Below, in pieces: positions 3,052 to 42,104 of a stretch of DNA of 57,681 bases; positions within the stretch are counted from its first letter, which is position 1, and each line of letters begins with the position of its first letter. Below the pieces are notes generated by a model. The model was not told the DNA's origin. It did no database searches and saw only the letters and a list, made by a program, of their open reading frames with translations. Both the position numbers and the translations under genes were made by a program. Source of the DNA: Candidatus Woesearchaeota archaeon (GTDB taxonomy: Archaea; Nanobdellota; Nanobdellia; UBA10117; ARS21); the NCBI GenBank assembly GCA_964615505.1, contig CAZTOR010000001.1, forward strand, positions 1-57,681, read 5' to 3'.

Positions 3052-3468
3052 ATGTCTGATGAATTTGAATTAGTACCTTCTAAAAAGTTGAAGGAATTGG
3101 AATCTGAATTAAAGAAAATTAAATCGTTAGATAAGAAATCAAAGAATTCACCTAAAGAATATACTAATATTTTGAATTCAGTTCAGAAAATTGAAACTAA
3201 ATTCGAATTAACTGTGAAGAATTTGAATAAGTTAACTAATAAGTTGGACAATCTCCTAAAAATATTCTCGGGAGATATTGATGAAACAAGTGAAGAGGTT
3301 GATCAATTAGGCGAAATTTTATCAAGATTGGAAAAATTGGAAGGTTCACATGAATCTCTACGTCAGGAAACTCAAAATTTGCATTCTTCCATAAAACGTA
3401 AATCTTACTTTAACGAGCGTTTCCCGCGTGGTCTGAAAGTTAAATATAAACGGACAAAAAATCTGTAA
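3052..3468 (+). CDS. coiled-coil protein, function unknown (138 aa)
   Basis: Charged heptad-like sequence rich in Lys, Glu and Leu, with a basic C-terminal tail. No enzymatic motif. It lies between the thermosome gene and the pilin genes. Confidence 0.5.
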   Translation: MSDEFELVPSKKLKELESELKKIKSLDKKSKNSPKEYTNILNSVQKIETKFELTVKNLNKLTNKLDNLLKIFSGDIDETSEEVDQLGEILSRLEKLEGSHESLRQETQNLHSSIKRKSYFNERFPRGLKVKYKRTKNL

Positions 3469-3499: not shown

Positions 3500-4030
3500 A
3501 TGTCAAAAGGATTAACTCCAGTTGTTGCTATGATTTTGTTATTGATGATGACAGTTGCTGCAGCAGGAGCTAGTTTTTATTGGTTAATTAAAATACAGGG
3601 GGAGCTTCAGGGCGGAACGCAACAATTTCAGGAACAGACTTTTGAAAGAATGACTTCAAATGTGGCTTGGCAAGATGCGAATTTTGATAGATCAACGAGA
3701 AATTTGACTATAAATCTATTGAATACAGGAACTACTAAGATACCTATTGCTAACCAGAGTTCTTCACCAAAAGCTCAATGGACGCTTTTAGATAGTGAAC
3801 AAGATATAATCTGTACTTCAGATTGGAACGGTACGGTAATTTCTTCAGATAATATACATTGTTGGAGCGGTTGCGATAGCGAATTAGGTTTGAAAGAATT
3901 AAGACTTATTAAATTAGAATTGAGAGACGGAGGAGATTGTGATATTGATGCTAAAGCAAATGATTCATTGATTTATGCAAAAATTTCATTTAGTGGTAAA
4001 ACTACTGCTTCAGGAACCTTTAGAAAATGA
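3500..4030 (+). CDS. archaeal type IV pilin (class III signal peptide), paralog 2
   Basis: N-terminus MSKG/LTPVVAMILLLMMTVAAAGASFYW. Has the same 4-Cys module (IICTS...HCWSGCD...GGDC) and a terminal ISFSGK. Confidence 0.8.
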   Translation: MSKGLTPVVAMILLLMMTVAAAGASFYWLIKIQGELQGGTQQFQEQTFERMTSNVAWQDANFDRSTRNLTINLLNTGTTKIPIANQSSSPKAQWTLLDSEQDIICTSDWNGTVISSDNIHCWSGCDSELGLKELRLIKLELRDGGDCDIDAKANDSLIYAKISFSGKTTASGTFRK

Positions 4031-4545
4031 GACGAAAAATGAATAAGAAGGGAATAACGCCAGTTATTGCGGTAATACTTTTGATGATGATGACAGTTGC
4101 TGCAGCAGGAGCTGCATTCTTCTGGTTCGTTAGAATACAAGGAGAACTTCAATCAGGTGGAGAAAATTATGCGTCAGAGTTAGGAGAAACTATAAACTCT
4201 AATGTTTATATTCAAGTCGCAGATCATGTTTCCGGAGATTTAGAAATATATGTTAAAAATACCGGAGGAGTAGATATACCTGTAAATATTGGAGCAGATT
4301 CACCAACAACTTCATTTGTATTACAACAAGGAGATGGAACAGTAATATGTCAAACATATCTCGGTAGTGCCGCCGCGGATTGTACTTCTGGATGTGGAAA
4401 TGATATACTCGTTGGTGAGACGCAAAAATTAGATATTGATTTGGCAGGTGATTGTTCTTTAAATTCTTATTCTGAAGATACTTCCATACATTTTACATTG
4501 GACTTTTCCGGTAAATCTGCAACAGGCGCCACTTTTGAAATATAA
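4027..4545 (+). CDS. archaeal type IV pilin (class III signal peptide), paralog 3
   Basis: N-terminus MRRKMNKKG/ITPVIAVILLMMMTVAAAGAAFFW. Has the 4-Cys module (VICQT...DCTSGCG...AGDC) and a terminal LDFSGK. Its start overlaps the stop of paralog 2 (ATGA). Confidence 0.8.
   Translation: MRRKMNKKGITPVIAVILLMMMTVAAAGAAFFWFVRIQGELQSGGENYASELGETINSNVYIQVADHVSGDLEIYVKNTGGVDIPVNIGADSPTTSFVLQQGDGTVICQTYLGSAAADCTSGCGNDILVGETQKLDIDLAGDCSLNSYSEDTSIHFTLDFSGKSATGATFEI
4072..4125. repeat. 54-nt segment identical to 867-920
   Basis: See 867-920. This is the second copy of the perfectly conserved pilin N-terminal coding segment. Confidence 0.9.
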
Positions 4546-4580: not shown

Positions 4581-6458
4581 ATGAAGCGCGGTTTGTCTAA
4601 TCTTATTGCATTTGTACTTGTAATCTTGATGACTTTGACAGTTGCTACTGCATTTTACTATTGGTTTACTGGAGTGCACTCTGATGCAATGAGTGCTTCT
4701 GAAACTTTTACTGGAGACATACAAAGTCAAGTAATAACTCAATCTACTTCCTTAATTGATCAATATTATAAAACAGATAACGAAAAAAATATGAATAATT
4801 TTGGTGAGATTACTCAAACAATTTGTGCCGAAGATAAAGGGATTAGTTTATCTGAAGATGATATTAGTTTTGAATTATATGAAGGTTATGGATCGAATCA
4901 AGAATTGATTTGCTCAGAATTTGGTGTGGATTGTAAATGTGACCAGTTAAATACAGCCATTGTTGGTGTATTAGGCGGGAATAATACACAAAACGGTATC
5001 ACTTTAATCTCTTCAACAGATGGTGAAAACTGGACTGAAAAAGTAGTAACTACTGATTTTGGAAATTATGATGAATTTGATTTTAGTTCAATCTCTACTT
5101 TTGTGGAAGGTGGGAATAATTGTACTAGCCCAATAAATATAATTTTGCACGGGTCTGCAAGACTTGATGTGGATGGCGGGTTGGGTGAAATTCCTGATAA
5201 TAAACCCAAATATATTGGATTGGTAGTTAACTCCTCTTTAGACGGCGTATCATATGATACAGCAGGAGTCGATTTGGAAAATGTGACTAAATATTTTGAC
5301 ATTACGCAAAGTCCACTTGAATCCGATGATACGTTAGAGCATCTGTTTAAAGGCGGAACTTTATTTTCTCCAACTCTTGGAACAAATCTAGAAGCAATTA
5401 TAACTCATCAGTTTTCGATTTACGATCGTCAAACACGACTTCCGGCTTTTGGAACGAACGGTCGGAGCATTAGTAATAGTGCAGTAACTGCAATTCAAAG
5501 AATTATTAGAAATGGGGAAAATCAATTATTGATTGGAGTTACATTAAATGATTCTAGCGGAGGATCATATATTGATGAAACTATAGACATAGCATCAGGT
5601 ATGGAAAAGAATTATCCGAGTGAATGTCCTTATGAGGTTACTAGTTTTGATGCGTGCGGTTATGATCCAACTCAGGCAGCTGCCTGTACCATTCAAATTG
5701 ACCAAGTTGCAGATATATTTTATGCCGATCAATTTGATGCTATGGTTTCATTAGAAAATTCAAAACCTGTGTTTATAGGTGTGCGTGGAAGGGATAAGGC
5801 AGGAAGAGGAGTAAATTCATTACTATATACCGGATATAATATGACCGAAACTGTAATTTACTGTCTAGATCTTAATGCTTTTGGAGCAGGATATGATTAT
5901 AGATTAAATGTAACAGATATAAAATATTTTGATAATTTGGGTACAGTTGCAGCATTCATAACTAGTGAAGAAGGTATTGCAAAAACTCAAGTTATAATGA
6001 TAAGACAAGAAGGTGAAAATTTGGTGCCTGTTCTGACGGATATACCTACTACTGTTTCCATTAAAACTTTTGCACAAATGGGAGACTATCTTTATGGAGG
6101 CGGTACTGATTACAGTGATGGTTTAATTTTTAGATATAAACTGGATGAAGAAGGCACTATTATAGATATAACGCAAGTTTACCAAAACACAGATTATCTT
6201 GAAGTTCAAAAACTTGAAACCATTAAATATTGTGCTGATCGAAACGTTTACTGTGTGGATGGATGTAACAAAGTCTTGAAAAGAGGTGAATGTTCTGACC
6301 TTACTCTTTCATTAGAAAATTCTGATTGCGATATTTCAAAATACAGTTATGAAACAGATTTTACTTCCAGATTAAATGTAGGTAATGATTTACAAATATT
6401 AAATGTTTTCACTAAAAAACAGAAAAGTAGTAAGGAGATAAACAGTACATTAATATGA
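4581..6458 (+). CDS. giant pilin-like protein (625 aa): class III signal peptide, large globular insert and pilin-type Cys module
   Basis: N-terminus MKRG/LSNLIAFVLVILMTLTVATAFYYWF. The C-terminus (YCADRNVYCVDGCNKVLKRGECSDLTLSLENSDC) repeats the C-x-[SD]GC ... L-x-[IL]-x-L ... C pattern of the three small pilins. The roughly 500 aa between them have no motif I can name. Confidence 0.65.
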   Translation: MKRGLSNLIAFVLVILMTLTVATAFYYWFTGVHSDAMSASETFTGDIQSQVITQSTSLIDQYYKTDNEKNMNNFGEITQTICAEDKGISLSEDDISFELYEGYGSNQELICSEFGVDCKCDQLNTAIVGVLGGNNTQNGITLISSTDGENWTEKVVTTDFGNYDEFDFSSISTFVEGGNNCTSPINIILHGSARLDVDGGLGEIPDNKPKYIGLVVNSSLDGVSYDTAGVDLENVTKYFDITQSPLESDDTLEHLFKGGTLFSPTLGTNLEAIITHQFSIYDRQTRLPAFGTNGRSISNSAVTAIQRIIRNGENQLLIGVTLNDSSGGSYIDETIDIASGMEKNYPSECPYEVTSFDACGYDPTQAAACTIQIDQVADIFYADQFDAMVSLENSKPVFIGVRGRDKAGRGVNSLLYTGYNMTETVIYCLDLNAFGAGYDYRLNVTDIKYFDNLGTVAAFITSEEGIAKTQVIMIRQEGENLVPVLTDIPTTVSIKTFAQMGDYLYGGGTDYSDGLIFRYKLDEEGTIIDITQVYQNTDYLEVQKLETIKYCADRNVYCVDGCNKVLKRGECSDLTLSLENSDCDISKYSYETDFTSRLNVGNDLQILNVFTKKQKSSKEINSTLI

Positions 6459-7057
6459 AAACTGGGCAAGCACAAATAGTTGGTTTTACTTTAGCAACGT
6501 TAATCATGTTGTCTGTGACCGCAGTAGTATTTATCTGGGCAAATCCTTTAATTCAAAATTCTAAAGATGTTAATGATTTGGACAGAATTGAGAATAGAAT
6601 GATTCTATTAGATAGTGCGATTAAAGAAGTGGCTACACAAAAATCTCAGAGAACTGTTGATTTTGAAATAAAGTCAGGAGATTTATTGATGGAGAGTGGC
6701 AGTAAACTAGTTTATTATACAAATATTGATTTACCGATTTCAAGTGGGGAAAAAATTGTTGTTCGAGGAGGGAATAAAACAGCAGGCGGTGCTTGCCTAA
6801 ATACTTCAACAAATGGTTCGATTGGAACAGATAGTTCGAGTTGTTTGATTCTTCAAGGCAGTGCGATTTATGAATTATATTATCCTGTATTGAAGGATAG
6901 TGTTAGTTGCTTTGCAATTAGGTTGAAGGCAGGTAATAATGCGGGAGTTGGTAAAGGTAAACATAAAATAAAATTAAAATATGATCACACAAACACAACT
7001 GCGGAAAATGGTTGTGGAACTATAACTAAACCAACTGTTGAGATAGATATAGAATGA
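6455..7057 (+). CDS. prepilin-like (minor pilin-like) protein, 200 aa
   Basis: N-terminus MKTG/QAQIVGFTLATLIMLSVTAVVFIW, followed by a Cys-containing extracellular-type sequence. ATGA overlap with the upstream gene. Confidence 0.55.
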   Translation: MKTGQAQIVGFTLATLIMLSVTAVVFIWANPLIQNSKDVNDLDRIENRMILLDSAIKEVATQKSQRTVDFEIKSGDLLMESGSKLVYYTNIDLPISSGEKIVVRGGNKTAGGACLNTSTNGSIGTDSSSCLILQGSAIYELYYPVLKDSVSCFAIRLKAGNNAGVGKGKHKIKLKYDHTNTTAENGCGTITKPTVEIDIE

Positions 7058-7515
7058 AGGGACAAGTAAGTATAGTTTATTTAGGTATATTGACAGTAAT
7101 AAGTTTGGCAATATTTGGCGTAATATTAGTATGGAATTTATCAATTAAAGATGCAAATACTGATTTGATTGTTGAGACTGAGATTAATAGTATACTTGAA
7201 AAAGTTGAGGCCGATATTTACTATATTGAAAGTTTGAATAAAAGTGGAGAATTTAAGATATATCGTTCTCTGCCTAACCGACTTGGTGAAGATTTCTATA
7301 CTATAACGCTACGCGCAGACGGGACAAGCAATTCTAAGGGCGGCTATTTGAATAATGACCAAATTATAATAACAAAAGATGCTAAACAAAGATTTACTTT
7401 ATCTAAAACTTATTTCAGTAAAGATATTTATACAGACCTATACATAATTCCTTCTTCAGTATCAGGTGGTGAATACACTCTGACTTCGAATAGCTCGGGC
7501 ATAAAAATTAACTAA
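7054..7515 (+). CDS. prepilin-like (minor pilin-like) protein, 153 aa
   Basis: N-terminus MKG/QVSIVYLGILTVISLAIFGVILVW. ATGA overlap with the upstream gene. Confidence 0.55.
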   Translation: MKGQVSIVYLGILTVISLAIFGVILVWNLSIKDANTDLIVETEINSILEKVEADIYYIESLNKSGEFKIYRSLPNRLGEDFYTITLRADGTSNSKGGYLNNDQIIITKDAKQRFTLSKTYFSKDIYTDLYIIPSSVSGGEYTLTSNSSGIKIN

Positions 7516-7547
7516 AAACATATATAATCTTGCCGACTATATTCGAC

Positions 7548-9224
7548 ATGGTCAATTCTAAAGCTCTTCGAATGCTTAAGAAAATTAAACAGAAGAATAC
7601 CTCACTCGTTGATTCTAATAAAATGGAGCATAAACTCAAAGTTGATGAAAAAATTGAAAAAACACTTAGAATTAAATTGCCCTCCGAACATTTGGACCAT
7701 AAAGAGAGTTCTGAAAATGTTTCAGAAGAATTGAAAAAGGTTGATGAAACTTATCCTCTGATTAGTACTTCTATCGGAGAAAAACAGATTAGCTTGGCTT
7801 ATACAAATATAAAATTTGATATTGAAAATCATACTTTAGTTTATACTCTAACTGAACCAATGTTAAATGAATATTCGCAAGAATTAGTTAATAAAACTGT
7901 TGAAGAACTTCATGAAAATTTAGACCTGGAATTCGGAAAGCTTACAGATAAATTAAAGATTCATGCTTATTTGAATAAAAAGATTGATGAAATTTGGGCA
8001 AAAATGGGTGTTGTTCCTGCAATCGATCATGCAATTAAAATGAAATATTATGTTTTTAGGCAAACACTGGGCCTAGAAAAAATTGATGCGCTAATGATGG
8101 ACCCAAATATTGAAGATATTAGCTGTGATGGAGTAGATTTGCCAATTTTTATCTTTCATCGTAACCCTTTATATGGCGAAATGGCCACAAATGTCAAATT
8201 TGATTCAAAGGAAGAATTAGATTCTTTTTGTATGCGATTGGCCCAAAAGGCAAATCGTTCTATCTCTGTCGCAAATCCGCTTATGGATGGTGCTCTTGAA
8301 GACGGTTCAAGAGTTCAAATAACTTATGGTACAGATATAGCTAGACGTGGAAGCAATTTTACAATAAGAAAGTTCTTCAAGACGCCATTGAGCCCAGTAG
8401 ATTTGATGAAATTTGGAACTGTAGATGCTATAACTTTGGCTTACTTGTGGTTTACTATTGAAAGAGAAAAATCGATATTAATTGCAGGTTCAACAGCGAC
8501 AGGTAAAACTACTTTTCTGAATGCAGTTTCATTATTTATACGTCCAAATGATAAAATTGTATCTATAGAAGATACTTCAGAATTACAATTACCTCATACA
8601 AATTGGTTGCCTCAAGTTACTCGAGCAGGTTTTGGTCCAAATAAATACGGTGAAATAGATATGCACCAATTATTGAAATCCTCCATGCGACAAAGACCAG
8701 ATTATCTAATTGTAGGGGAAGTCAGAGGTGTTGAAGCAGAAGTACTATTTCAGGCGATGGCAACAGGACATCCAGGATTATCCACAATTCATGCAGATAC
8801 AACCGAGGCGGTTATCGATAGATTATCTAACCCTCCGATTGAGTTACCTCTTTCGGTTTTACAGAATCTAGATATTATTATTTTCCTAGAAAAAATAAAG
8901 CGTGAAGGGAAATTCTTTAGAAAATTGGCAAAACTAGTAGAAGTTGAAGGTTTTGACTCAAAAGAAAAGGAATTGAAAGTTAATGATGCAATAATATGGA
9001 ATCCAGGAACTGATGAATTTGAAAAGAACGAGAGTTTTATTTTATCTCAAATTTCGAAGACTCATGCTGCTGAATCTTCAGCAATTTTAGAAGAAGTTAT
9101 GCGTAGGGCAAATATTCTAAAATGGATGAGTGAATCTGAAATTACAAGATTTGACGAGGTATCTAAAATTATCAAAATGTACTATGTTCATCCAAATTCT
9201 GTATTCGATTTGATGAAGAAATGA
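7548..9224 (+). CDS. type IV pilus assembly ATPase (FlaI/PilB/VirB11 secretion NTPase family)
   Basis: Walker A GSTATGKTT, Walker B region PDYLIVGEVRG and His-box region TGHPGLSTIHA. The ORF track starts at TTG 7530. The first in-frame ATG is 7548, 25 nt downstream of the TATA-like acatatataat (7518-7528). Confidence 0.85.
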   Translation: MVNSKALRMLKKIKQKNTSLVDSNKMEHKLKVDEKIEKTLRIKLPSEHLDHKESSENVSEELKKVDETYPLISTSIGEKQISLAYTNIKFDIENHTLVYTLTEPMLNEYSQELVNKTVEELHENLDLEFGKLTDKLKIHAYLNKKIDEIWAKMGVVPAIDHAIKMKYYVFRQTLGLEKIDALMMDPNIEDISCDGVDLPIFIFHRNPLYGEMATNVKFDSKEELDSFCMRLAQKANRSISVANPLMDGALEDGSRVQITYGTDIARRGSNFTIRKFFKTPLSPVDLMKFGTVDAITLAYLWFTIEREKSILIAGSTATGKTTFLNAVSLFIRPNDKIVSIEDTSELQLPHTNWLPQVTRAGFGPNKYGEIDMHQLLKSSMRQRPDYLIVGEVRGVEAEVLFQAMATGHPGLSTIHADTTEAVIDRLSNPPIELPLSVLQNLDIIIFLEKIKREGKFFRKLAKLVEVEGFDSKEKELKVNDAIIWNPGTDEFEKNESFILSQISKTHAAESSAILEEVMRRANILKWMSESEITRFDEVSKIIKMYYVHPNSVFDLMKK

Positions 9225-10090
9225 AGATATATCAGCGTGCAAATGAATTGTTTGGAAGCATAGTCAAAAATAATAATAAATATTTTAAAAAAATTGGTCC
9301 AAAATTAAAAATTGCAAGATTAGGAGTTCCAATTGAGGCATACGGTTCATTGATTATATTCTTGTCATTAGCGAGCTTCGGATTATCTTTTTTATTTTTA
9401 GAATTGATTGGACTTTTGACAATGGGTTTCAGTTTAATTGGTTTGGCAGTAAACTTTTTTGTTGCTTTATTTATTGGGTTAATAGTAGGAGGTTTTGTTT
9501 ATCTTTACCCTTCTTTTGTAATTAGTGAAAAAAAGGATAAAATTGAGAATTCATTAGCTTTTGTTTCAATCTACATGTCAACCCTATCTAAATCAGGGTT
9601 TGAACCTCAGAAAATATTTGGATTATTGAGTAAATTCAAAGACTATCCGGCTGCTGCAGAAGAATCTAGAAAAATAGATCATGAAGTTAATAAATTGGGT
9701 ATGGATTTGCGGACATCATTAGATAGAGCTATTGCTCGTTCGCCATCTCCTGAATGGACAGAGTTTTTGGCTGGAATAAAAAATAGTATTGAAGTCGGAG
9801 GTGATCTAAATAAATATTTAGATGAAAAGGCAAAGGGTTTTGTTCATGAATATAAACGAAAACTTCAATCTTTTGGTAAAACTTTGACTTTGTTAATGAA
9901 TTTATACATTACAATAATTATCGTTGGTACAATATTTTTCATTGTGGTTTCTTCGTTAATGGGTGCAGTTGGAGGGATATCAATATCTACGATTAAAGCA
10001 TTTCACTATCTAACTGTGTTTGCAGGATTACCGTTAATAACTACCGCATTGATATTACTAATTAAGAATTCATCACCATGGGCAGAATAA
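9221..10090 (+). CDS. TadC/FlaJ/PilC-like polytopic platform protein 1
   Basis: TM helices flank a T2SS-F-like cytoplasmic helical domain (AFVSIYMSTLSKSGFEPQKIF ... FLAGIKNSIEVGGDL). 4-nt overlap with the ATPase gene. Confidence 0.75.
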   Translation: MKIYQRANELFGSIVKNNNKYFKKIGPKLKIARLGVPIEAYGSLIIFLSLASFGLSFLFLELIGLLTMGFSLIGLAVNFFVALFIGLIVGGFVYLYPSFVISEKKDKIENSLAFVSIYMSTLSKSGFEPQKIFGLLSKFKDYPAAAEESRKIDHEVNKLGMDLRTSLDRAIARSPSPEWTEFLAGIKNSIEVGGDLNKYLDEKAKGFVHEYKRKLQSFGKTLTLLMNLYITIIIVGTIFFIVVSSLMGAVGGISISTIKAFHYLTVFAGLPLITTALILLIKNSSPWAE

Positions 10091-11220
10091 AAGAGTTAAT
10101 GAGAAATAAGAAATTGTTTTACACAGCTCTTGCTCTTCCTGCTCCCTTTATTCTGGCACTGGCTGCGTTTTTAATGGGCGCAAGTAGTACCACCATTATT
10201 GCTTTACTTTCAATCGGTCTAATTATCGTAGTTCTACCTTCCATTTGGATATCCTTCAAAGAATTTTCTGAAATAAAGTCTGCCGAAGATCAATTTCCAC
10301 ACTTTCTAGAAGACTTGTCTCAATCTGCATCTGCAGGAATGACTCTCCCTCAAGCAATATCTGTGGCGAGTAAAACACATTACGGTAAATTAACGAGTCA
10401 TATCAAACAACTTAATATCTGGTTGTCGTGGAGTCAAGCTTTTCCAAAAGCCTGGGAAAAATTTACAAAACGTTTAGCTGCGAGTCAGTTAATCCGTAGA
10501 GTTAATGCAATTATTCTTGAAGCATTCCATAGCGGAGGAGATGTTAAAAAAACACTTGGTTCTCTTGCTGAAGATGTTAACATAATAAAAGATATGGAAT
10601 CTGAACGAAAATCAATAATGCATCAACAGATTATAATTATGTATATAATCTTTTTTGTATTTGTTGGAGTAATAATTGCGCTTTACAAAATCTTGTCTCC
10701 GATTCTATATGTTCAGCAAATTGGTTCATTCTCAGGAATTGGTATACAAGAAGGTGGCGCTAAACTAACAATTGAATATTTCCGAAATTTATTTTTCCTT
10801 ATGACCTTAGTTGAAGCAATTTGTGCAGGCCTAATTGCAGGTCAAATTGCTGAAGAAAGATTAGTTGCAGGAATTAAGCATGTAGTGATTATGGTTTCAG
10901 CAAGCGTTTTTGTATTCTTTGTATTTGTATTTCCGGCAGAACTATCTGTCGAAATTTCTGTATTCCCAACAGAGGCACCAATAGATAGCAAAATTACAGT
11001 TGTAGGTAAGGTCTTCTCCGAGGGAGCTCCAGTTTCAGGAGCAGATGTAATAATTACGGATAGTTCAGGGCTTCCTAAGCAAATCTTTACGGATAATTCA
11101 GGAGAATTTAGGTACTTTTGGGCAACTCCTGAACAAGCCGGAGAATATAATATTCATATAACTATTGAAGATGAAAAAGGTACGAAAAATTTCGTTCGAA
11201 CAGTTAGAGTAATTAGCTAA
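10078..11220 (+). CDS. TadC/FlaJ/PilC-like platform protein 2 with a C-terminal beta-sandwich-like extension
   Basis: T2SS-F-like segments (FLEDLSQSASAGMTLPQAI ... AIILEAFHSGGDV) and TM helices. The last 90 aa or so (ITVVGKVFSEGAPVSGADVIITDSSGLPKQIFTDNSGEFRYFWATPEQAGEYNIHI) resemble a carboxypeptidase-regulatory/Ig-like fold. Confidence 0.75.
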   Translation: MGRIKELMRNKKLFYTALALPAPFILALAAFLMGASSTTIIALLSIGLIIVVLPSIWISFKEFSEIKSAEDQFPHFLEDLSQSASAGMTLPQAISVASKTHYGKLTSHIKQLNIWLSWSQAFPKAWEKFTKRLAASQLIRRVNAIILEAFHSGGDVKKTLGSLAEDVNIIKDMESERKSIMHQQIIIMYIIFFVFVGVIIALYKILSPILYVQQIGSFSGIGIQEGGAKLTIEYFRNLFFLMTLVEAICAGLIAGQIAEERLVAGIKHVVIMVSASVFVFFVFVFPAELSVEISVFPTEAPIDSKITVVGKVFSEGAPVSGADVIITDSSGLPKQIFTDNSGEFRYFWATPEQAGEYNIHITIEDEKGTKNFVRTVRVIS

Positions 11221-12242
11221 TGAAAAAAGGATATGTTGTAGGAGAGTATATTATTGTAACATTTTTTTTCCTAATCTTATTTGTAGGCATTGTAGATAGA
11301 GTTGTTTTAATTACTTCGGAAGAAGTAGATTTAGCACAAGATTATGAATCTTGTGCAAATTCAGAGAGAATTTTTAAGGAGCTGGTAGATAATGAGGTTG
11401 AGGTTGCGAAATACGGTATAAGTTCTGACACGGGTACAGTAAATTATGATTCAATTAAATATATTTATGACAACAAAAATCTATCTAACTATAATAATGA
11501 TACAAATAAAAGCGATTCATTTAAGTTGGCGTATGAAATAAAGGGTTTTGATGTTCAGTCTGCTTATTCTACACCGAGAGAAGATATTAGTCAATCAGGT
11601 AGAGATTCACCTGTAGCCCAAATTTGGTTAAATCACACTAATGGCTCTAATTCTTCACTTGTTCAAAATGTAATTGGAATAGGCTCTGCTAAAAATACCT
11701 CTGGAGCAAGTGACGTATATCTAACTATTGAGATGGTGATTCCAAATGCTACTTTGATTAATAGTTATACTGACTCAGGATATTGTTCGCATCTAGGTGC
11801 AGGTGATACAGTGACATATACTCAAAAATCATATGGGCTTTTAGTAAATTATAATTCTAAGATTAACAATGGTTGCGACCATAGATATATTGCTTATACG
11901 ACCAACAAAACTACGCTTTCTGATTGGGATGAACATTGGACTAGGTATGGTCCAAATTTCGGTCCAATTCAAGATATTCAACGAAATAATAATTTAATTT
12001 TTATCAGAGATATTTCGTTTAGGAGTAAAACATTGGATAAAGATTATCCCGTCTATCTCGGTAATGATACTTTAGCTAAACTTGAATGGGGTGCACCTTC
12101 AGCAAATGGTTGTGAATACAAACGACTTTACAAAATTAAAGATGATGATTCATTTTTAATAAATCAGAGTATATTTGATGAAGAGCATGAAGTGAATATA
12201 TCTCGAAATTTTATGGGGGAAATTAAAGTAACTTCAATATGA
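11220..12242 (+). CDS. prepilin-like secreted protein, 340 aa, rich in N-x-S/T sequons
   Basis: N-terminus MKKG/YVVGEYIIVTFFFLILFVGIV, with Glu at +5 after the putative Gly cleavage site. It has 4 Cys and about a dozen N-x-S/T sequons. TAATG junction with the upstream gene. Confidence 0.5.
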   Translation: MKKGYVVGEYIIVTFFFLILFVGIVDRVVLITSEEVDLAQDYESCANSERIFKELVDNEVEVAKYGISSDTGTVNYDSIKYIYDNKNLSNYNNDTNKSDSFKLAYEIKGFDVQSAYSTPREDISQSGRDSPVAQIWLNHTNGSNSSLVQNVIGIGSAKNTSGASDVYLTIEMVIPNATLINSYTDSGYCSHLGAGDTVTYTQKSYGLLVNYNSKINNGCDHRYIAYTTNKTTLSDWDEHWTRYGPNFGPIQDIQRNNNLIFIRDISFRSKTLDKDYPVYLGNDTLAKLEWGAPSANGCEYKRLYKIKDDDSFLINQSIFDEEHEVNISRNFMGEIKVTSI

Positions 12243-12610
12243 ACAAGCGCGGTTATGTATATTTCATTGAAATAATATTTGCAGTAGTTTTGGCATTTTC
12301 CTTATTTACTTCTCTACAAGTCACTTCACTTCAACAAGATAGGAATATTGAAATTAATTCGTTGATTGCCTATGATTTACTTCGAGAGCTGAATGGACAT
12401 GATATAATTTCTGATGAAGAACCATATAATTCCGAATTTGTTGAAGATTATGTGGACGCGTATTTGCCAGATACTTTTGGGTTTTACCTTACTAATGGAA
12501 CAGTTAACCTTCCAATAAGTAATTATGATTTAAGTTATGCAGAATATACCTATAAAGATTCAACCGGAGGATGGTCTACACTTAAATTATATATATGGAG
12601 TAAACTATGA
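12239..12610 (+). CDS. prepilin-like protein, 123 aa
   Basis: N-terminus MNKRG/YVYFIEIIFAVVLAFSLF. ATGA overlap with the upstream gene. Confidence 0.5.
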   Translation: MNKRGYVYFIEIIFAVVLAFSLFTSLQVTSLQQDRNIEINSLIAYDLLRELNGHDIISDEEPYNSEFVEDYVDAYLPDTFGFYLTNGTVNLPISNYDLSYAEYTYKDSTGGWSTLKLYIWSKL

Positions 12611-13233
12611 AAGGACAATTCTTTATCTCAGGTGTTGTAGTAATTGCAGTTATCTTACTCGTTTCTATGACTTATGCAAATAGTGCTGAAGAGCTTCGGA
12701 TTTATGGCGGAAATGATTTGGCTTTTGAAAATTATAAGAATGCTTATGAAGACGCAGTGCCCGATGATTGGATTGATACTCACTACGATAGCAGAAAAGT
12801 AATTGGTATTTGTGTGGATGATCCTACTTCATCAGCTTATTTTAATACAACAGTTCAATTTTCTGTTAGTACAGATTGTAAAAAGGAATTATATTCGACA
12901 ACCCCTTTTTTAATTGAATATGTTGGCGGTGGTTTAACTTCTTGCAATATTGTAATTCAGCCGTCTTCATTAAGTCTTAATTCCAAAAATTGTACATCCT
13001 TGTATATATACTACAACGGAAGTATGAGTAACGATATTCCAAATGTTGGTGATACTGCAGGAGATGTAAATGGTTCTTTAATTGATTTTATATCAATCTC
13101 AACAAGTCCTCATAGCGAGTTAGTTACTAATTATCGCGAGAAAAATATTTTAGTTAGTGAGACTTCAAGTACAAATAAAATATATAATGTAAGTTACAAA
13201 TCAAATAGAATTGATTATACCGGTCAACTTTAG
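12607..13233 (+). CDS. prepilin-like protein, 208 aa
   Basis: N-terminus MKG/QFFISGVVVIAVILLVSMTY. It has 4 Cys and several N-x-S/T sequons. ATGA overlap with the upstream gene. Confidence 0.5.
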   Translation: MKGQFFISGVVVIAVILLVSMTYANSAEELRIYGGNDLAFENYKNAYEDAVPDDWIDTHYDSRKVIGICVDDPTSSAYFNTTVQFSVSTDCKKELYSTTPFLIEYVGGGLTSCNIVIQPSSLSLNSKNCTSLYIYYNGSMSNDIPNVGDTAGDVNGSLIDFISISTSPHSELVTNYREKNILVSETSSTNKIYNVSYKSNRIDYTGQL

Positions 13234-19477: not shown

Positions 19478-21955
19478 ATGAGTAAGCAATCCGAATATAT
19501 TGATTTTAGTGAAATTTTAAACTTATTGAAAAAGAGTTACTTGAAAGTTAGAAATTTTAAATATCTTGAACATTCCTTGTTTGGTTTGATTGCAGTTTTA
19601 GCTTTATTTTTGAGGACTAGGAATATATCTCTGTTAAAGGGTAAATATTTAGTTGGTCTTGATCCCTATTATTATTTTAGACAAGCAAAAGAAATTATTA
19701 ATCAAGGATTCTTAACATCACCAGATCTATTTAGGAATCCGCCAATTGGACATGAGCCTTCGCTTGATTTTTTCCCTTATTTTATGGCCTACTGGTCTAA
19801 ATTTCTTAGTTTATTTGGATTGAATCAAGAAATGGCGCATATAATTTACCCTCCTGCCATAATGTTGATTTCATTAATTCCATTTTACTTATTTGTAAAA
19901 AATGTTTTTGGTAAAAAAATTGGTTTAATTTCGGCATTACTTCTTTCCATAATACCAGGATATATTTTTCGAACAGGTTCTGGATTTGCAGATCACGAAT
20001 CGTTAGCAATGTTATTTGTATTTAGTGCACTTTATTTCTTTAGCAGAGGTTTGGATTTTAAATCAAATAAAAAATACGTATATGGAATTGCCGCAGGTTT
20101 ATTCACTTGGTTAATGGCAATGTCTTGGAGCGCATATCCTTTCTTAGTAATTACGATCTCATTATTTTATCTTTTCAAGTTCTTCTTCTCTAAAATAGAT
20201 TTGAGATATTATCTTACGTGGGTATTAACGTTCTCGATATTATTAATTCTATTTGGAAAATTCGATATTAGCAATTACGGTATTCTTATTGCTCTTGCGA
20301 CGCTATTTATTTTAGTTATTAATCGAGTTATTTCTGATTTTGATTTTAAGATGCCTAATCAAGTATCTTCTGTAATTATTGCAATTTTTGTAGGTATTAC
20401 TATTAATTATATTTTCAAAATTATTGATTTGACATCTTTAGTCTTTAATTTACTGAATGCAGGAGGTTCATCAAAAGTAGATTTCACTACTTCCGAAGTC
20501 AGTCGAGCTTTTGTTATGAGCGGGAATAGTTATTTTTCCAATTACGGTTATCTAATTTTTATTTCCATATTAGGCCTATTCTTACTTTCTTCAGTAATAT
20601 TTGGTAAATTAAAAAAGAGTAATAGGCTGATATTGACAAGTCTCACTGTAGGTTCGGTGACCTTGGTTATGTTAGGTAACTGGAGTTATTCAATTAGTAT
20701 AATGCAGGATTTATATCTACAATTCTTAGCATCAGTTGGAATTATATTCATACTCTATTATTCTTACTTATATCAATCTAATCAAATCGAAAAAGTTCAG
20801 AATCTGGCAAATCCTAAACTTTTGTTGATATTATCGCTATTTATAACATCTGGCCTTCTTGCAAGAACGGCTACTCGATTTTTGTTTCTTTTTGGGCCTG
20901 CCGTAGTAATATTGGCAGCATATGCATTAAATGAACTCTATATTCACTCTAAAAAATTGAAGTTTGGACCAATTGTAGCAATAATTGTATTTGCAATATT
21001 ATCTTTTAATCTTGCAGAAATTAGTTATAATCAAAATAGTAGAACTGGCTCAGGTCTTCCTGGTCAATGGGAGAGTTCGATGATGTTTCTAGATTCTAGT
21101 ACTTCTGAAGATTCAATAATTGCTCATTGGTGGGACTACGGTTATTGGACACAATCTGTCGGAAATAGGGCATCGGTACAAGACGGAGGTAAACCAGGCG
21201 GAGGGTTTATGATATATACTCTTGCGCGTTATGGTATGACTCATACTGATCCAGTTGAATCATTAGAGTACTTTAAGGCTCACGGTACAACTCATTTATT
21301 ATACTCTTCAGAAGAAATTGGTAAGTATGGTGCCTTTTCATATCTTGGTTCAGATAAAAATGATGATCGTAAGTCAATGATCGGTATGTTTGGTCTTTCA
21401 GCGATTAACGAAGTTAGATCAGGGAATAAATTAACTTATCAAGGCAATTGGCAACTAGATGATACGTTAATTGATGGTAAAAAAATAATTCTTCCAGGAC
21501 AAGGATATATTTCAGAAATAAATGTTTATGTGGATGACGTTGGAGTTTATGCTCCTGCTACTGTAAAGATTATTGCATCAAATTATGTTAATGAATTTGA
21601 AATTGGATGTATATATTTACATGACACAAAATTCATATTTGAAGAAAATGAATTAAATTCATGTGTAAAGGTAATTCCGAATAGTAACGGCGGAAATAGG
21701 AACGATTTGGGCGGTGCATTATACTTATCTGAAAAAGTTAAGGACGGTCTATTTGCAAAACTCTATATTCATTCTGAACAAATTGAAGGGTATTCTCAAA
21801 TATATTATGATAATATTCCGCTATCTTTCTTTAAAGGTAGGTTGATGGGACCAATAAAGATCTGGAAACTTGATTATCCGAATAACTTAAATAATGTTGA
21901 TAGATTTTTAGATGAGGCTAAATTGCCCGAATTTAAAGAAAATTATATCTTATGA
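19478..21955 (+). CDS. aglB: archaeal oligosaccharyltransferase AglB (STT3 family)
   Basis: 825 aa. Multi-TM N-terminal half, the catalytic WWDYG motif (AHWWDYGYWTQ) and a soluble C-terminal domain. Confidence 0.85.
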   Translation: MSKQSEYIDFSEILNLLKKSYLKVRNFKYLEHSLFGLIAVLALFLRTRNISLLKGKYLVGLDPYYYFRQAKEIINQGFLTSPDLFRNPPIGHEPSLDFFPYFMAYWSKFLSLFGLNQEMAHIIYPPAIMLISLIPFYLFVKNVFGKKIGLISALLLSIIPGYIFRTGSGFADHESLAMLFVFSALYFFSRGLDFKSNKKYVYGIAAGLFTWLMAMSWSAYPFLVITISLFYLFKFFFSKIDLRYYLTWVLTFSILLILFGKFDISNYGILIALATLFILVINRVISDFDFKMPNQVSSVIIAIFVGITINYIFKIIDLTSLVFNLLNAGGSSKVDFTTSEVSRAFVMSGNSYFSNYGYLIFISILGLFLLSSVIFGKLKKSNRLILTSLTVGSVTLVMLGNWSYSISIMQDLYLQFLASVGIIFILYYSYLYQSNQIEKVQNLANPKLLLILSLFITSGLLARTATRFLFLFGPAVVILAAYALNELYIHSKKLKFGPIVAIIVFAILSFNLAEISYNQNSRTGSGLPGQWESSMMFLDSSTSEDSIIAHWWDYGYWTQSVGNRASVQDGGKPGGGFMIYTLARYGMTHTDPVESLEYFKAHGTTHLLYSSEEIGKYGAFSYLGSDKNDDRKSMIGMFGLSAINEVRSGNKLTYQGNWQLDDTLIDGKKIILPGQGYISEINVYVDDVGVYAPATVKIIASNYVNEFEIGCIYLHDTKFIFEENELNSCVKVIPNSNGGNRNDLGGALYLSEKVKDGLFAKLYIHSEQIEGYSQIYYDNIPLSFFKGRLMGPIKIWKLDYPNNLNNVDRFLDEAKLPEFKENYIL

Positions 21956-41321: not shown

Positions 41322-42104
41322 ATGTTATTCGGATTTATTCTACATCTAATTTCTTTTTCAATTTTACAATTCACTGCAATTTGGTTGGCACTAGAAAAAT
41401 TAAATTACGAACCAATATATTATCAACTTTCAACCAACATCTTTTTACTAACATTATTTATTGCAACAATATCATTATTTTTAATTCTAAAATTATCAAA
41501 AAGAATAAACATAATCAGATATTTATTTTACATAATTTTAATATTTGGTTCAAAATCTGTTTTTGAAATATTCTACTCTAATTTATCTGCATCAGTAATT
41601 TCTCTTTTAATTTTAATTTTATATATTTATAGAAGAAATCTTTTTTTACACAATTTAGTTTTGGGATTAGCAATACTGGGTATATCTACAAATCTAGGTT
41701 CATCTCTGAAACCAATAACTGTAATATTATTAATGTCCGTATTTGCAATATATGACATTCTGGCAGTTTATGCTTCAAAATATATGGTTAAGTTATTCAA
41801 AAATTTCGCAAATCGCGGAGCAACTTTGGCATTTATTTATCCAAAAAAATATGGTAAAATTACTGCCAAAAATTTATTTATTTTGGGAACAGGAGATGTA
41901 GCTTTTCCAATGTTACTTATTAGTTCATTAACCAAATATTCAATAGAATTGGCAACTTTGGCAGCAGCAGGATCAATTTTCGGAGCCGCAACCGTATTTT
42001 ATCTATTAAGCATACAAAAAAATAAACGACCGATGCCCGCATTACCACCAATAGCATTTTTTACAATATTACCGGTTATCGTAAAATTAATGTTCACCTT
42101 CTAA
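41322..42104 (+). CDS. presenilin / signal-peptide-peptidase homolog (GxGD intramembrane aspartyl protease, A22-like)
   Basis: Polytopic membrane protein with YD (AIYDILAVY), GxGD (LGTGDVAFP) and PAL (RPMPALPP) motifs in the canonical order. Confidence 0.75.
   Translation: MLFGFILHLISFSILQFTAIWLALEKLNYEPIYYQLSTNIFLLTLFIATISLFLILKLSKRINIIRYLFYIILIFGSKSVFEIFYSNLSASVISLLILILYIYRRNLFLHNLVLGLAILGISTNLGSSLKPITVILLMSVFAIYDILAVYASKYMVKLFKNFANRGATLAFIYPKKYGKITAKNLFILGTGDVAFPMLLISSLTKYSIELATLAAAGSIFGAATVFYLLSIQKNKRPMPALPPIAFFTILPVIVKLMFTF

Follow-up and report, generated by a model that had tools for sequence, protein, structure and literature searches.

A β-propeller predicted within an archaeal pilin: a candidate pilus adhesin of Candidatus Woesearchaeota

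The subject of this report is a gene at one end of a 57,681-nucleotide stretch of DNA from a Candidatus Woesearchaeota archaeon (contig CAZTOR010000001.1 of assembly GCA_964615505.1; hereafter the window), a chromosomal segment with a low GC content of ∼33%. The open reading frame (ORF) at 4581–6458, whose coordinates and length had been given exactly in a first-pass annotation made from the letters alone, encodes a 625-residue protein that we refer to as the propeller-pilin. Sequence comparison and structural modeling indicate that this protein is a pilin, encoded in a pilus operon, with a β-propeller inserted in the loop between its first two conserved cysteines (Cys1 and Cys2). We think it rather probable that the product is a modular minor pilin of an archaeal type IV pilus, one that displays the propeller as an adhesin and probably sits at the tip. 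Pilins bearing a functional module are already known from bacteria, and adhesins have been predicted in archaeal pilus loci; the family described here apparently carries this principle of modular pilins over to the archaea, with a β-propeller as the inserted fold. Little is known of how DPANN archaea find and attach to their hosts, and type IV pili are leading candidates for the task. The parts of the gene are as follows.

4581–6458, forward: propeller-pilin ORF, 625 residues, ATG start, stop codon included
4581–4766, forward: class III signal peptide and long α1 helix, residues 1–62 (TIGR02537, hhalign, model helix 3–62)
4767–4928, forward: N-terminal half of the pilin β-domain, residues 63–116 (hhalign, alignment, Cys covariation, model)
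4929–6236, forward: predicted inserted β-propeller, residues ∼117–552 (AlphaFold2 model, Foldseek, relatives with a BNR propeller at the equivalent site)
5013–5033, forward: Asp-box-like motif STDGENW, residues 145–151 (sequence motif and model)
6237–6416, forward: C-terminal half of the pilin β-domain, residues 553–612 (hhalign, alignment, Cys covariation, model)

Pilin identity of the two ends

Judged by sequence, the first ∼116 and the last ∼73 residues of the propeller-pilin together make up one complete pilin of the same family as its three neighbors in the window. The N-terminus is class-III-like and reads MKRG followed by LSNLIAFVLVILMTLTVATAFYYWF, with predicted cleavage after G4 and a hydrophobic core at residues 5–29 (mean Kyte–Doolittle hydropathy 1.86). 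A class III signal peptide had been called here in the first-pass annotation, and our comparisons agree with that call. The archaellin/type IV pilin N-terminal domain, TIGR02537, gives a marginal match (E = 4e-4, 19.8 bits), and hhalign, with a profile of the propeller-pilin and its two closest relatives as the query, pairs residues 2–123 with pilin residues 7–129 (probability 95.6%, E = 1e-8). BLASTP of the propeller-pilin against the three window pilins gives E-values from 1e-7 to 9e-4. The N-terminal half of the β-domain is modeled as three strands (76–82, 95–101 and 108–114), contains C82, and ends at pilin Cys1 (C111).

The C-terminal half carries the motif C558-x-D-G-C562 ... C571 ... 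L-x-L-x-L ... C583-D-I-S and is modeled as strands 557–560, 571–577, 593–600 and 604–611. The earlier suggestion that this Cys module is common to the pilins is upheld by hhalign: when the last 96 residues are compared with a pilin profile, residues ∼552–599 pair with columns 116–162 (probability 93%, E = 3e-7). Furthermore, a construct from which the insert has been deleted (residues 1–116 joined to 553–625, 189 residues) aligns end to end with the 172–182-residue pilins, and the same deletion in two distant relatives likewise yields an end-to-end pilin alignment. Invariant in this alignment are the cleavage-site Gly, the Trp that closes α1N, four cysteines, and a C-terminal Phe; C111, C558, C562 and C583 of the propeller-pilin correspond to C113, C125, C129 and C150 of the pilins. 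A profile of the pilins and the insert-deleted giants matches 8FK7, the Pyrobaculum calidifontis archaeal type IV pilus subunit (PMC10334743), with E = 1e-6 and Iho670 with E = 0.011. Three traits of archaeal type IV pilins and archaellins are present, namely a leader with α1N, a pilin β-domain, and an ATPase and platform in the same operon.

The insert of ∼436 residues (∼117–552) lies between pilin Cys1 and Cys2, a loop that is short, variable in length, and poorly conserved in ordinary pilins. Relatives were collected by an exhaustive search of representatives, which returned 31, compared with 2 from a word-index search using either the single sequence or a 16-sequence profile. In all 16 full-length family members, two further cysteine pairs are jointly present or jointly absent. 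Sites 82 and 571 are both Cys in nine of the 16 sequences and both non-Cys in the other seven; sites 120 and 551 are both Cys in 14 and both non-Cys in two (P0006 and P0025), and there are no mismatches at either pair. P0006 and P0025 belong to different subgroups, and the overall pattern implies about four independent joint losses. A predicted C82–C571 disulfide probably ties a β-strand of the N-terminal half to one of the C-terminal half, and a predicted C120–C551 disulfide probably clamps the base of the insert. From the covariation it can be argued that the N- and C-terminal halves of the pilin are packed against each other and that a clamp secures the base of the insert. The first-pass annotation had proposed a pilin split open by an insert of about 500 residues. 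The split agrees with the matches of both ends, the insert-deleted alignment, the Cys covariation, and the AlphaFold2 model, whereas the size has to be revised downward to the value given above.

The insert modeled as a β-propeller

The insert is rich in Gly (9.5%), Thr (9.3%), Asp (8.6%) and Asn (6.4%), as had been remarked from the sequence, and the accompanying guess that it might be a β-propeller has gained support from an AlphaFold2 model, from Foldseek, and from BNR sequence matches of relatives. Prediction from a three-sequence alignment gave a predicted local distance difference test (pLDDT) score of only 35.7, and a usable model was obtained only after the relatives from the exhaustive search were added; the resulting 16-sequence alignment gave a pLDDT of 68 and a predicted template-modeling (pTM) score of 0.63. 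In order along the chain, the model has a long α1 helix (3–62), three β-strands (76–114), ∼25 strands (120–554), and four β-strands (557–611). The pLDDT is 78–86 over residues 81–130, about 80–86 over the three strands within 76–114, 75–84 over 557–611, and 80–93 over most of 396–552. The strand count of the model suggests six or seven blades.

A Foldseek search of the PDB with this model gave 171 matches at E ≤ 1e-3, and all of the 50 matches listed are β-propellers. The best E-values (∼2e-7) belong to the NanI/NanJ sialidases, and other listed matches are integrin αV, Sec12, DDB1, LGI1-EPTP, LRP YWTD domains, and seven-bladed lactonases (TMt ∼0.5). The TM-scores are low (TMq 0.13–0.34, TMt no higher than 0.52). 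The most likely reason is that the query contains more than the propeller, namely the long helix, the pilin domain, and loops of poor model quality.

The Asp-box-like motif STDGENW lies in the turn between modeled strands 140–145 and 152–157 of blade 1 and is kept in 13 of 17 full-length family members; blade 1 as a whole, with this motif, is conserved between subgroups. A degenerate second motif, SLDGVSY (residues 219–225), occupies the equivalent position in the next blade. Of the repeated Asp-boxes (SxDxGxTW), the propeller-pilin therefore has one conserved, shortened copy and one degenerate copy, compared with four or five in each of the relatives P0019 and P0023–26. These relatives form a subgroup (A6) whose insert bears its four or five motifs in the form SxDGxxW and whose insert profile matches the BNR propeller of a GH74 (glycoside hydrolase, GH) xyloglucanase with E = 1e-8, as well as DUF6242 and designed "Cake" propellers. 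A second subgroup, A7, matches A6 over the insert (E = 4e-7), and the subgroup of the window protein matches A7 end to end with E = 1e-30, the confident alignment being limited to the ends and blade 1. The assignment of a propeller is therefore firm by sequence for the relatives, and for the window protein it is predicted from the model together with the conserved first and last blades. The propeller-pilin itself has no Pfam match at E ≤ 0.1, BNR included, and its NCBIfam match covers the N-terminal pilin domain only; a sequence search of the PDB returned nothing meaningful, cathepsin K at E ∼1 being noise.

The sialidase and xyloglucanase matches raise the question of whether the protein is an enzyme. 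A sialidase or glycosidase was rejected as the primary reading on three grounds: there is no FRIP motif, there is no match to a GH family, and non-enzymatic propellers are equally similar. In a search of the propeller-pilin for [FYW]RIP, none was found; there is just an RLP at residue 286, which is not conserved in P0002. More broadly, the protein could be a surface protein that is not polymerized, with α1 serving as an anchor or short stalk and the propeller acting as a binding protein or as a sialidase- or GH74-type hydrolase or lyase. The presence of sialidases and GH43/GH33 enzymes among the top Foldseek matches and the GH74 match of the relatives would fit such a protein, as would a cassette in two related loci (described below) that has no adjacent ATPase or platform gene. 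There is also a precedent in the sugar-binding proteins of the Sulfolobus bindosome, which use class III signal peptides away from any pilus (PMC4858521; 10.64898/2026.04.22.720090). However, the propeller-pilin keeps far more than a signal peptide, since it has an entire pilin β-domain that shares its ancestry with the filament pilins encoded next to it. Of the Asp-boxes, just one or two degenerate copies are left, sequence searches give no glycosidase family, and integrin, Sec12, DDB1 and YWTD propellers score as well in Foldseek as the enzymes do. We therefore regard a non-polymerized surface protein as unlikely. The first-pass annotation had also named two outcomes that would refute its reading, and we looked for both: no match to a cytoplasmic or enzyme family was found, and the C-terminal module survived a proper alignment.

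Family, operon and proposed function

Members of the family have in common an N-terminal module (residues ∼1–155) and a C-terminal module (∼520–610), and between these the middle is variable, with total lengths from 534 to 2357 residues. Some relatives carry lectin-type Laminin_G_3 domains (PF13385) beyond the C-terminal pilin half: P0014 has one, P0016 five, and P0017 many. Members of A6 end in Cys-rich tails with a weak likeness to tick evasins (E = 0.012). In P0030, a related ordinary pilin, a Kelch propeller is appended rather than inserted. Among GTDB-representative genomes, a scan with alignment A2 placed relatives in metagenome-assembled genomes of Nanoarchaeota and Candidatus Woesearchaeota. 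The family members are labeled "hypothetical protein [Candidatus Woesearchaeota archaeon]" by NCBI.

The propeller-pilin diverges rapidly. It is 58.7% identical to its closest ortholog, in locus L001, whereas most neighbors are 82–92% identical: the thermosome encoded nearby 92%, the pilins 84%, the 200-residue protein encoded immediately downstream 88%, the ATPase 83%, and the platform 84–89%. The same holds for locus L003, with 40% identity for the propeller-pilin, 62–73% for the pilins, and 65% for the ATPase. Within the propeller-pilin, the pilin parts are 71–80% identical to those of the L001 ortholog and the insert is 52% identical. By sequence identity, no large gene of the operon is more variable than that of the propeller-pilin, and within it the predicted propeller varies most, a pattern that would be expected for a module that faces a ligand or host. 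Only the 208-residue protein encoded at 12607–13233 is comparably divergent (52.5% identical to its L001 counterpart), and a 340-residue protein (11220–12242) is intermediate at 75%; these two proteins may be evolving in concert with the propeller-pilin as its partners.

The gene is part of a pilus operon, the other genes of which, with those that interrupt it, are listed below.

822–1370, forward: pilin paralog 1, 182 residues (TIGR02537, E = 4e-10)
1371–2975, reverse: thermosome gene, which separates pilin paralog 1 from the main part of the pilus operon
3052–3468, forward: 138-residue protein lacking a signal peptide, likewise located between pilin paralog 1 and the main part of the operon
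3500–4030, forward: pilin paralog 2, 176 residues (TIGR02537)
4027–4545, forward: pilin paralog 3, 172 residues (TIGR02537)
6455–7057 and 7054–7515, forward: candidate minor pilins of 200 and 153 residues (class-III-like N-termini only)
7530–9224, forward: assembly ATPase, T2SSE/FlaI-like (PF00437, E = 6e-35; NF058587, E = 1e-119, below cutoff)
9221–10090 and 10078–11220, forward: membrane platform as two genes, T2SSF/TadC-FlaJ halves (PF00482, E = 1e-15 and 2e-14)
11220–13233, forward: three class-III-like proteins of 340, 123 and 208 residues, candidate minor pilins or accessory subunits (N-terminal sequence)

Most gene junctions of the operon are overlaps of 1–13 nucleotides (nt). Paralogs 2 and 3 overlap by 4 nt, a gap of 35 nt separates paralog 3 from the propeller-pilin downstream, and the genes for the 200- and 153-residue proteins each start with a 4-nt overlap of the preceding stop, that of the propeller-pilin included. 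Neither of these two proteins has a family match in Pfam or NCBIfam. Pilin paralog 1 is separated from the operon by the thermosome gene, which has a divergent orientation. The placement directly after pilin paralogs that had been noted earlier is correct, the paralogs in question being two, and it is kept in every related locus examined (L001, L003, L004, L005/6 and L007/8). In L001, L003, L004 and L007/8, the entire order is kept: thermosome, small ORF, pilins, propeller-pilin, the ∼200- and ∼153-residue genes, ATPase, two platform halves, and three small genes. In the P0019 subgroup (L005 6908–10318 and L006 1866–5276), the pilins, the propeller-pilin and the 200-residue gene form a cassette in the same chromosomal neighborhood (thermosome, Hel308, methyltransferase, SecDF) without an adjacent ATPase or platform, which must therefore be encoded elsewhere in the genome or have been lost. 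Clade/system 1 archaeal type IV pili occur in methanogens and DPANN archaea, and separate PilY-like adhesins have been predicted for them (PMC4858521; bioRxiv 10.64898/2026.04.22.720090); the split platform and the lineage of the window fit this class.

Several further features of the locus may be recorded here. The placement of the thermosome and 138-residue genes is kept in all related loci, including the distant L005 and L007, and the 138-residue protein has the look of a coiled coil, as judged by eye. The second platform half has an extra C-terminal Ig-like domain of ∼70 residues (weak CarboxypepD_reg/Big_1 matches, residues ∼297–370), which may be extracellular. Other genes of the window include those for the thermosome, Hel308, SecDF, AglB/STT3, both PolD subunits, Orc1/Cdc6, PolB and Cdc48. 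The AglB/STT3 oligosaccharyltransferase (19478–21955), which was checked against Pfam, is followed by an extended series of ORFs, up to 31991, in which glycosyltransferase, sugar-nucleotide and flippase-like genes seem to be present, as judged by eye. There are nine N-x-S/T sequons in the propeller-pilin and 12 in the 340-residue protein, and together with the AglB/STT3 region these indicate that the pilus proteins may be N-glycosylated. The ORF at 41322–42104 (forward, 260 residues) was considered as an A24 prepilin peptidase and rejected, as it matches presenilin/SPP (PF06550, E = 5e-10). It encodes a multi-pass membrane protein with YD...GTGD...PAL motifs, an A22 intramembrane protease, and is the only GxGD protease in the window. 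An Rfam scan of the entire window found no family at the gathering threshold and detected no tRNA, rRNA or other known RNA.

We propose the following model for the propeller-pilin as a pilus subunit. The preprotein would be cut after G4 by a prepilin peptidase encoded outside the window. The ATPase and split platform of the operon would then engage the hydrophobic α1 helix, which would pack against its counterparts in the major pilins. The two pilin parts would re-form one domain, from which the propeller would project. Given that a propeller of this bulk would not fit at every position along the shaft, the subunit would most likely be found at the tip, where it would be incorporated first, perhaps in company with the operon's five small class-III-like proteins; otherwise it would be incorporated rarely. 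The propeller would be a ligand-binding module that attaches the pilus to a surface, and in a DPANN lineage the ligands are most plausibly glycans or proteins on another cell. Three observations fit an adhesin function: the gene lies in a pilus operon, its propeller evolves fast, and relatives carry arrays of lectin domains.

The operon context would also suit an assembly primer or cap that nucleates the pilus or aids its passage through the S-layer, with the propeller as a platform for other minor pilins. The propeller-pilin gene is translationally coupled to those of two small class-III-like proteins, three more such proteins are encoded downstream, and the position in the operon is strictly conserved. 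CofB and TcpB initiate the assembly of type IVb pili. Large minor pilins located at the tip, such as CofB and GspK, have been described (PMC8179133). A primer would be predicted to show machinery-like conservation, yet the propeller is the least conserved part of the protein, and in relatives lectin-type domains have been added to the same scaffold. The roles of primer and adhesin are compatible with one another; as an account of the propeller in its own right, the primer or cap seems improbable to us.

The subunit might instead decorate the shaft at low frequency, with the propeller pointing sideways from the Cys1–Cys2 loop to give multivalent lateral adhesion. The variable length and poor conservation of this loop in ordinary pilins suggest that it is probably surface-exposed, and to our knowledge archaeal pili have no outer-membrane secretin that would limit the width of a subunit. 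For modular pilins in general, a location in the filament body has been left open (PMC8179133). The propeller, however, has more than twice the mass of the carrier pilin domain and is predicted to be rigidly clamped to it, and clashes with neighboring subunits are likely. We consider decoration of the shaft very unlikely. Each of these readings, including the non-polymerized surface protein, is less well supported than the tip adhesin.

Several points nevertheless weigh against a tip adhesin built on a pilin and a propeller. The TIGR02537 score falls just under the curated cutoff of 20 bits. The propeller assignment of the window protein depends on a medium-confidence model from 16 sequences, in which residues 226–287 and 335–346 are poorly modeled. 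The core of the insert (158–545) has no significant sequence match to a known propeller or lectin family in Pfam, NCBIfam or the PDB, and hhalign of this core against the BNR relatives gives E = 0.003 with a probability of 10% for A6 and E = 0.19 for A7. We sought a gene for an A24 prepilin peptidase and found none within the 57.7-kb window. The proposed location at the tip is argued from analogy and steric considerations, and relaxed constraint, rather than diversification driven by a ligand, could be the cause of the fast evolution.

On a wider and more tentative view, the propeller-pilin may be a host-recognition device of Woesearchaeota-type DPANN archaea, in which a diversifying propeller at the pilus tip would set which host or surface can be grasped. 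A single chain would then in effect unite an archaeal PilY1 with a minor pilin, its insert secured by disulfides particular to the family. The pilin scaffold would be common to much of a lineage, and some relatives would add lectin arrays or Cys-rich knots to it. The family in any case provides a candidate adhesive subunit for DPANN archaea, with a defined propeller module, a fixed position in a conserved operon, and signs of rapid diversification. Proteins that are now called "hypothetical protein" could be annotated systematically with a profile of the two conserved pilin halves, N- and C-terminal.

Comparison with known systems

Our literature search, which was not exhaustive, found no described archaeal pilin with a β-propeller inserted in its globular domain and no description of this Woesearchaeota family. 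The archaeal pilins of known structure, 8FK7 and Ignicoccus Iho670 (5KYH), resemble the propeller-pilin in the class III peptide, α1, and the first β-strands. They differ in being small (144–303 residues), uninterrupted, filament-forming major subunits.

The closest parallels in architecture are the bacterial modular pilins PilB, PilC, CofB, ComZ and GspK, which have been modeled or proposed at filament tips on steric grounds (Raynaud et al. 2021, PMC8179133). In Streptococcus sanguinis, PilB has a vWA module and PilC a ConA-like lectin module, and CofB of enterotoxigenic Escherichia coli (ETEC) is also modular (PMC8179133). Like these three, the propeller-pilin combines a pilin carrier with a bulky non-pilin effector, is encoded with the pilus machinery, and is a predicted tip adhesin; in addition, Laminin_G_3 (PF13385), which is listed among the modules of bacterial modular pilins (PMC8179133), is present in its relatives. 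The module of PilB, PilC and CofB is appended through a linker, whereas the predicted propeller is inserted inside the pilin β-domain and 73 pilin residues follow it. Of the two parts of the definition of a modular pilin, the propeller-pilin thus has the additional domain and departs from the fusion of that domain after the pilin through a linker. It also differs from the bacterial proteins in its archaeal class III peptide, in a fold of the archaellin/archaeal-pilin superfamily rather than IPR012902, and in having a β-propeller as its module.

The rarer inserted topology is found in GspK of the type II secretion system (α-domain) and in ComZ of Thermus thermophilus (β-solenoid), in which the domain is inserted in the pilin β-sheet (PMC8179133). 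As in those proteins, the pilin fold of the propeller-pilin is completed from both sides, and all are proposed tip subunits that act with other minor pilins. Unlike GspK and ComZ, to which it has no sequence relationship, the propeller-pilin is archaeal, its insert is a predicted β-propeller, and the insertion interrupts a loop flanked by Cys, where disulfides specific to the family are predicted to close the junction.

In its modeled fold, the insert resembles the BNR/Asp-box propellers (GH33, GH74, DUF6242), of which the NanI/NanJ sialidases give the best Foldseek E-values; blade 1 has an SxDGxxW motif in the turn between strands 3 and 4. It differs from them in that the motif is one residue shorter than SxDxGxTW, in the lack of FRIP, and in that residues 158–545 have no significant link to them.

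In proposed function, the nearest counterparts are the PilY1/PilC tip adhesins of type IVa pili, which are likewise propeller proteins of the pilus operon with a proposed role in adhesion at the tip. Membership in that family was considered and rejected: there is no Pfam match (PF05567/IPR008707, DUF2341) at E ≤ 0.1, PilY1 is not among the 50 listed Foldseek matches, and the protein is itself a pilin, so that the likeness is functional only. Whereas PilY1 is a non-pilin protein docked on a complex of minor pilins, the predicted propeller of the Woesearchaeota protein would be covalently part of the pilin that carries it.

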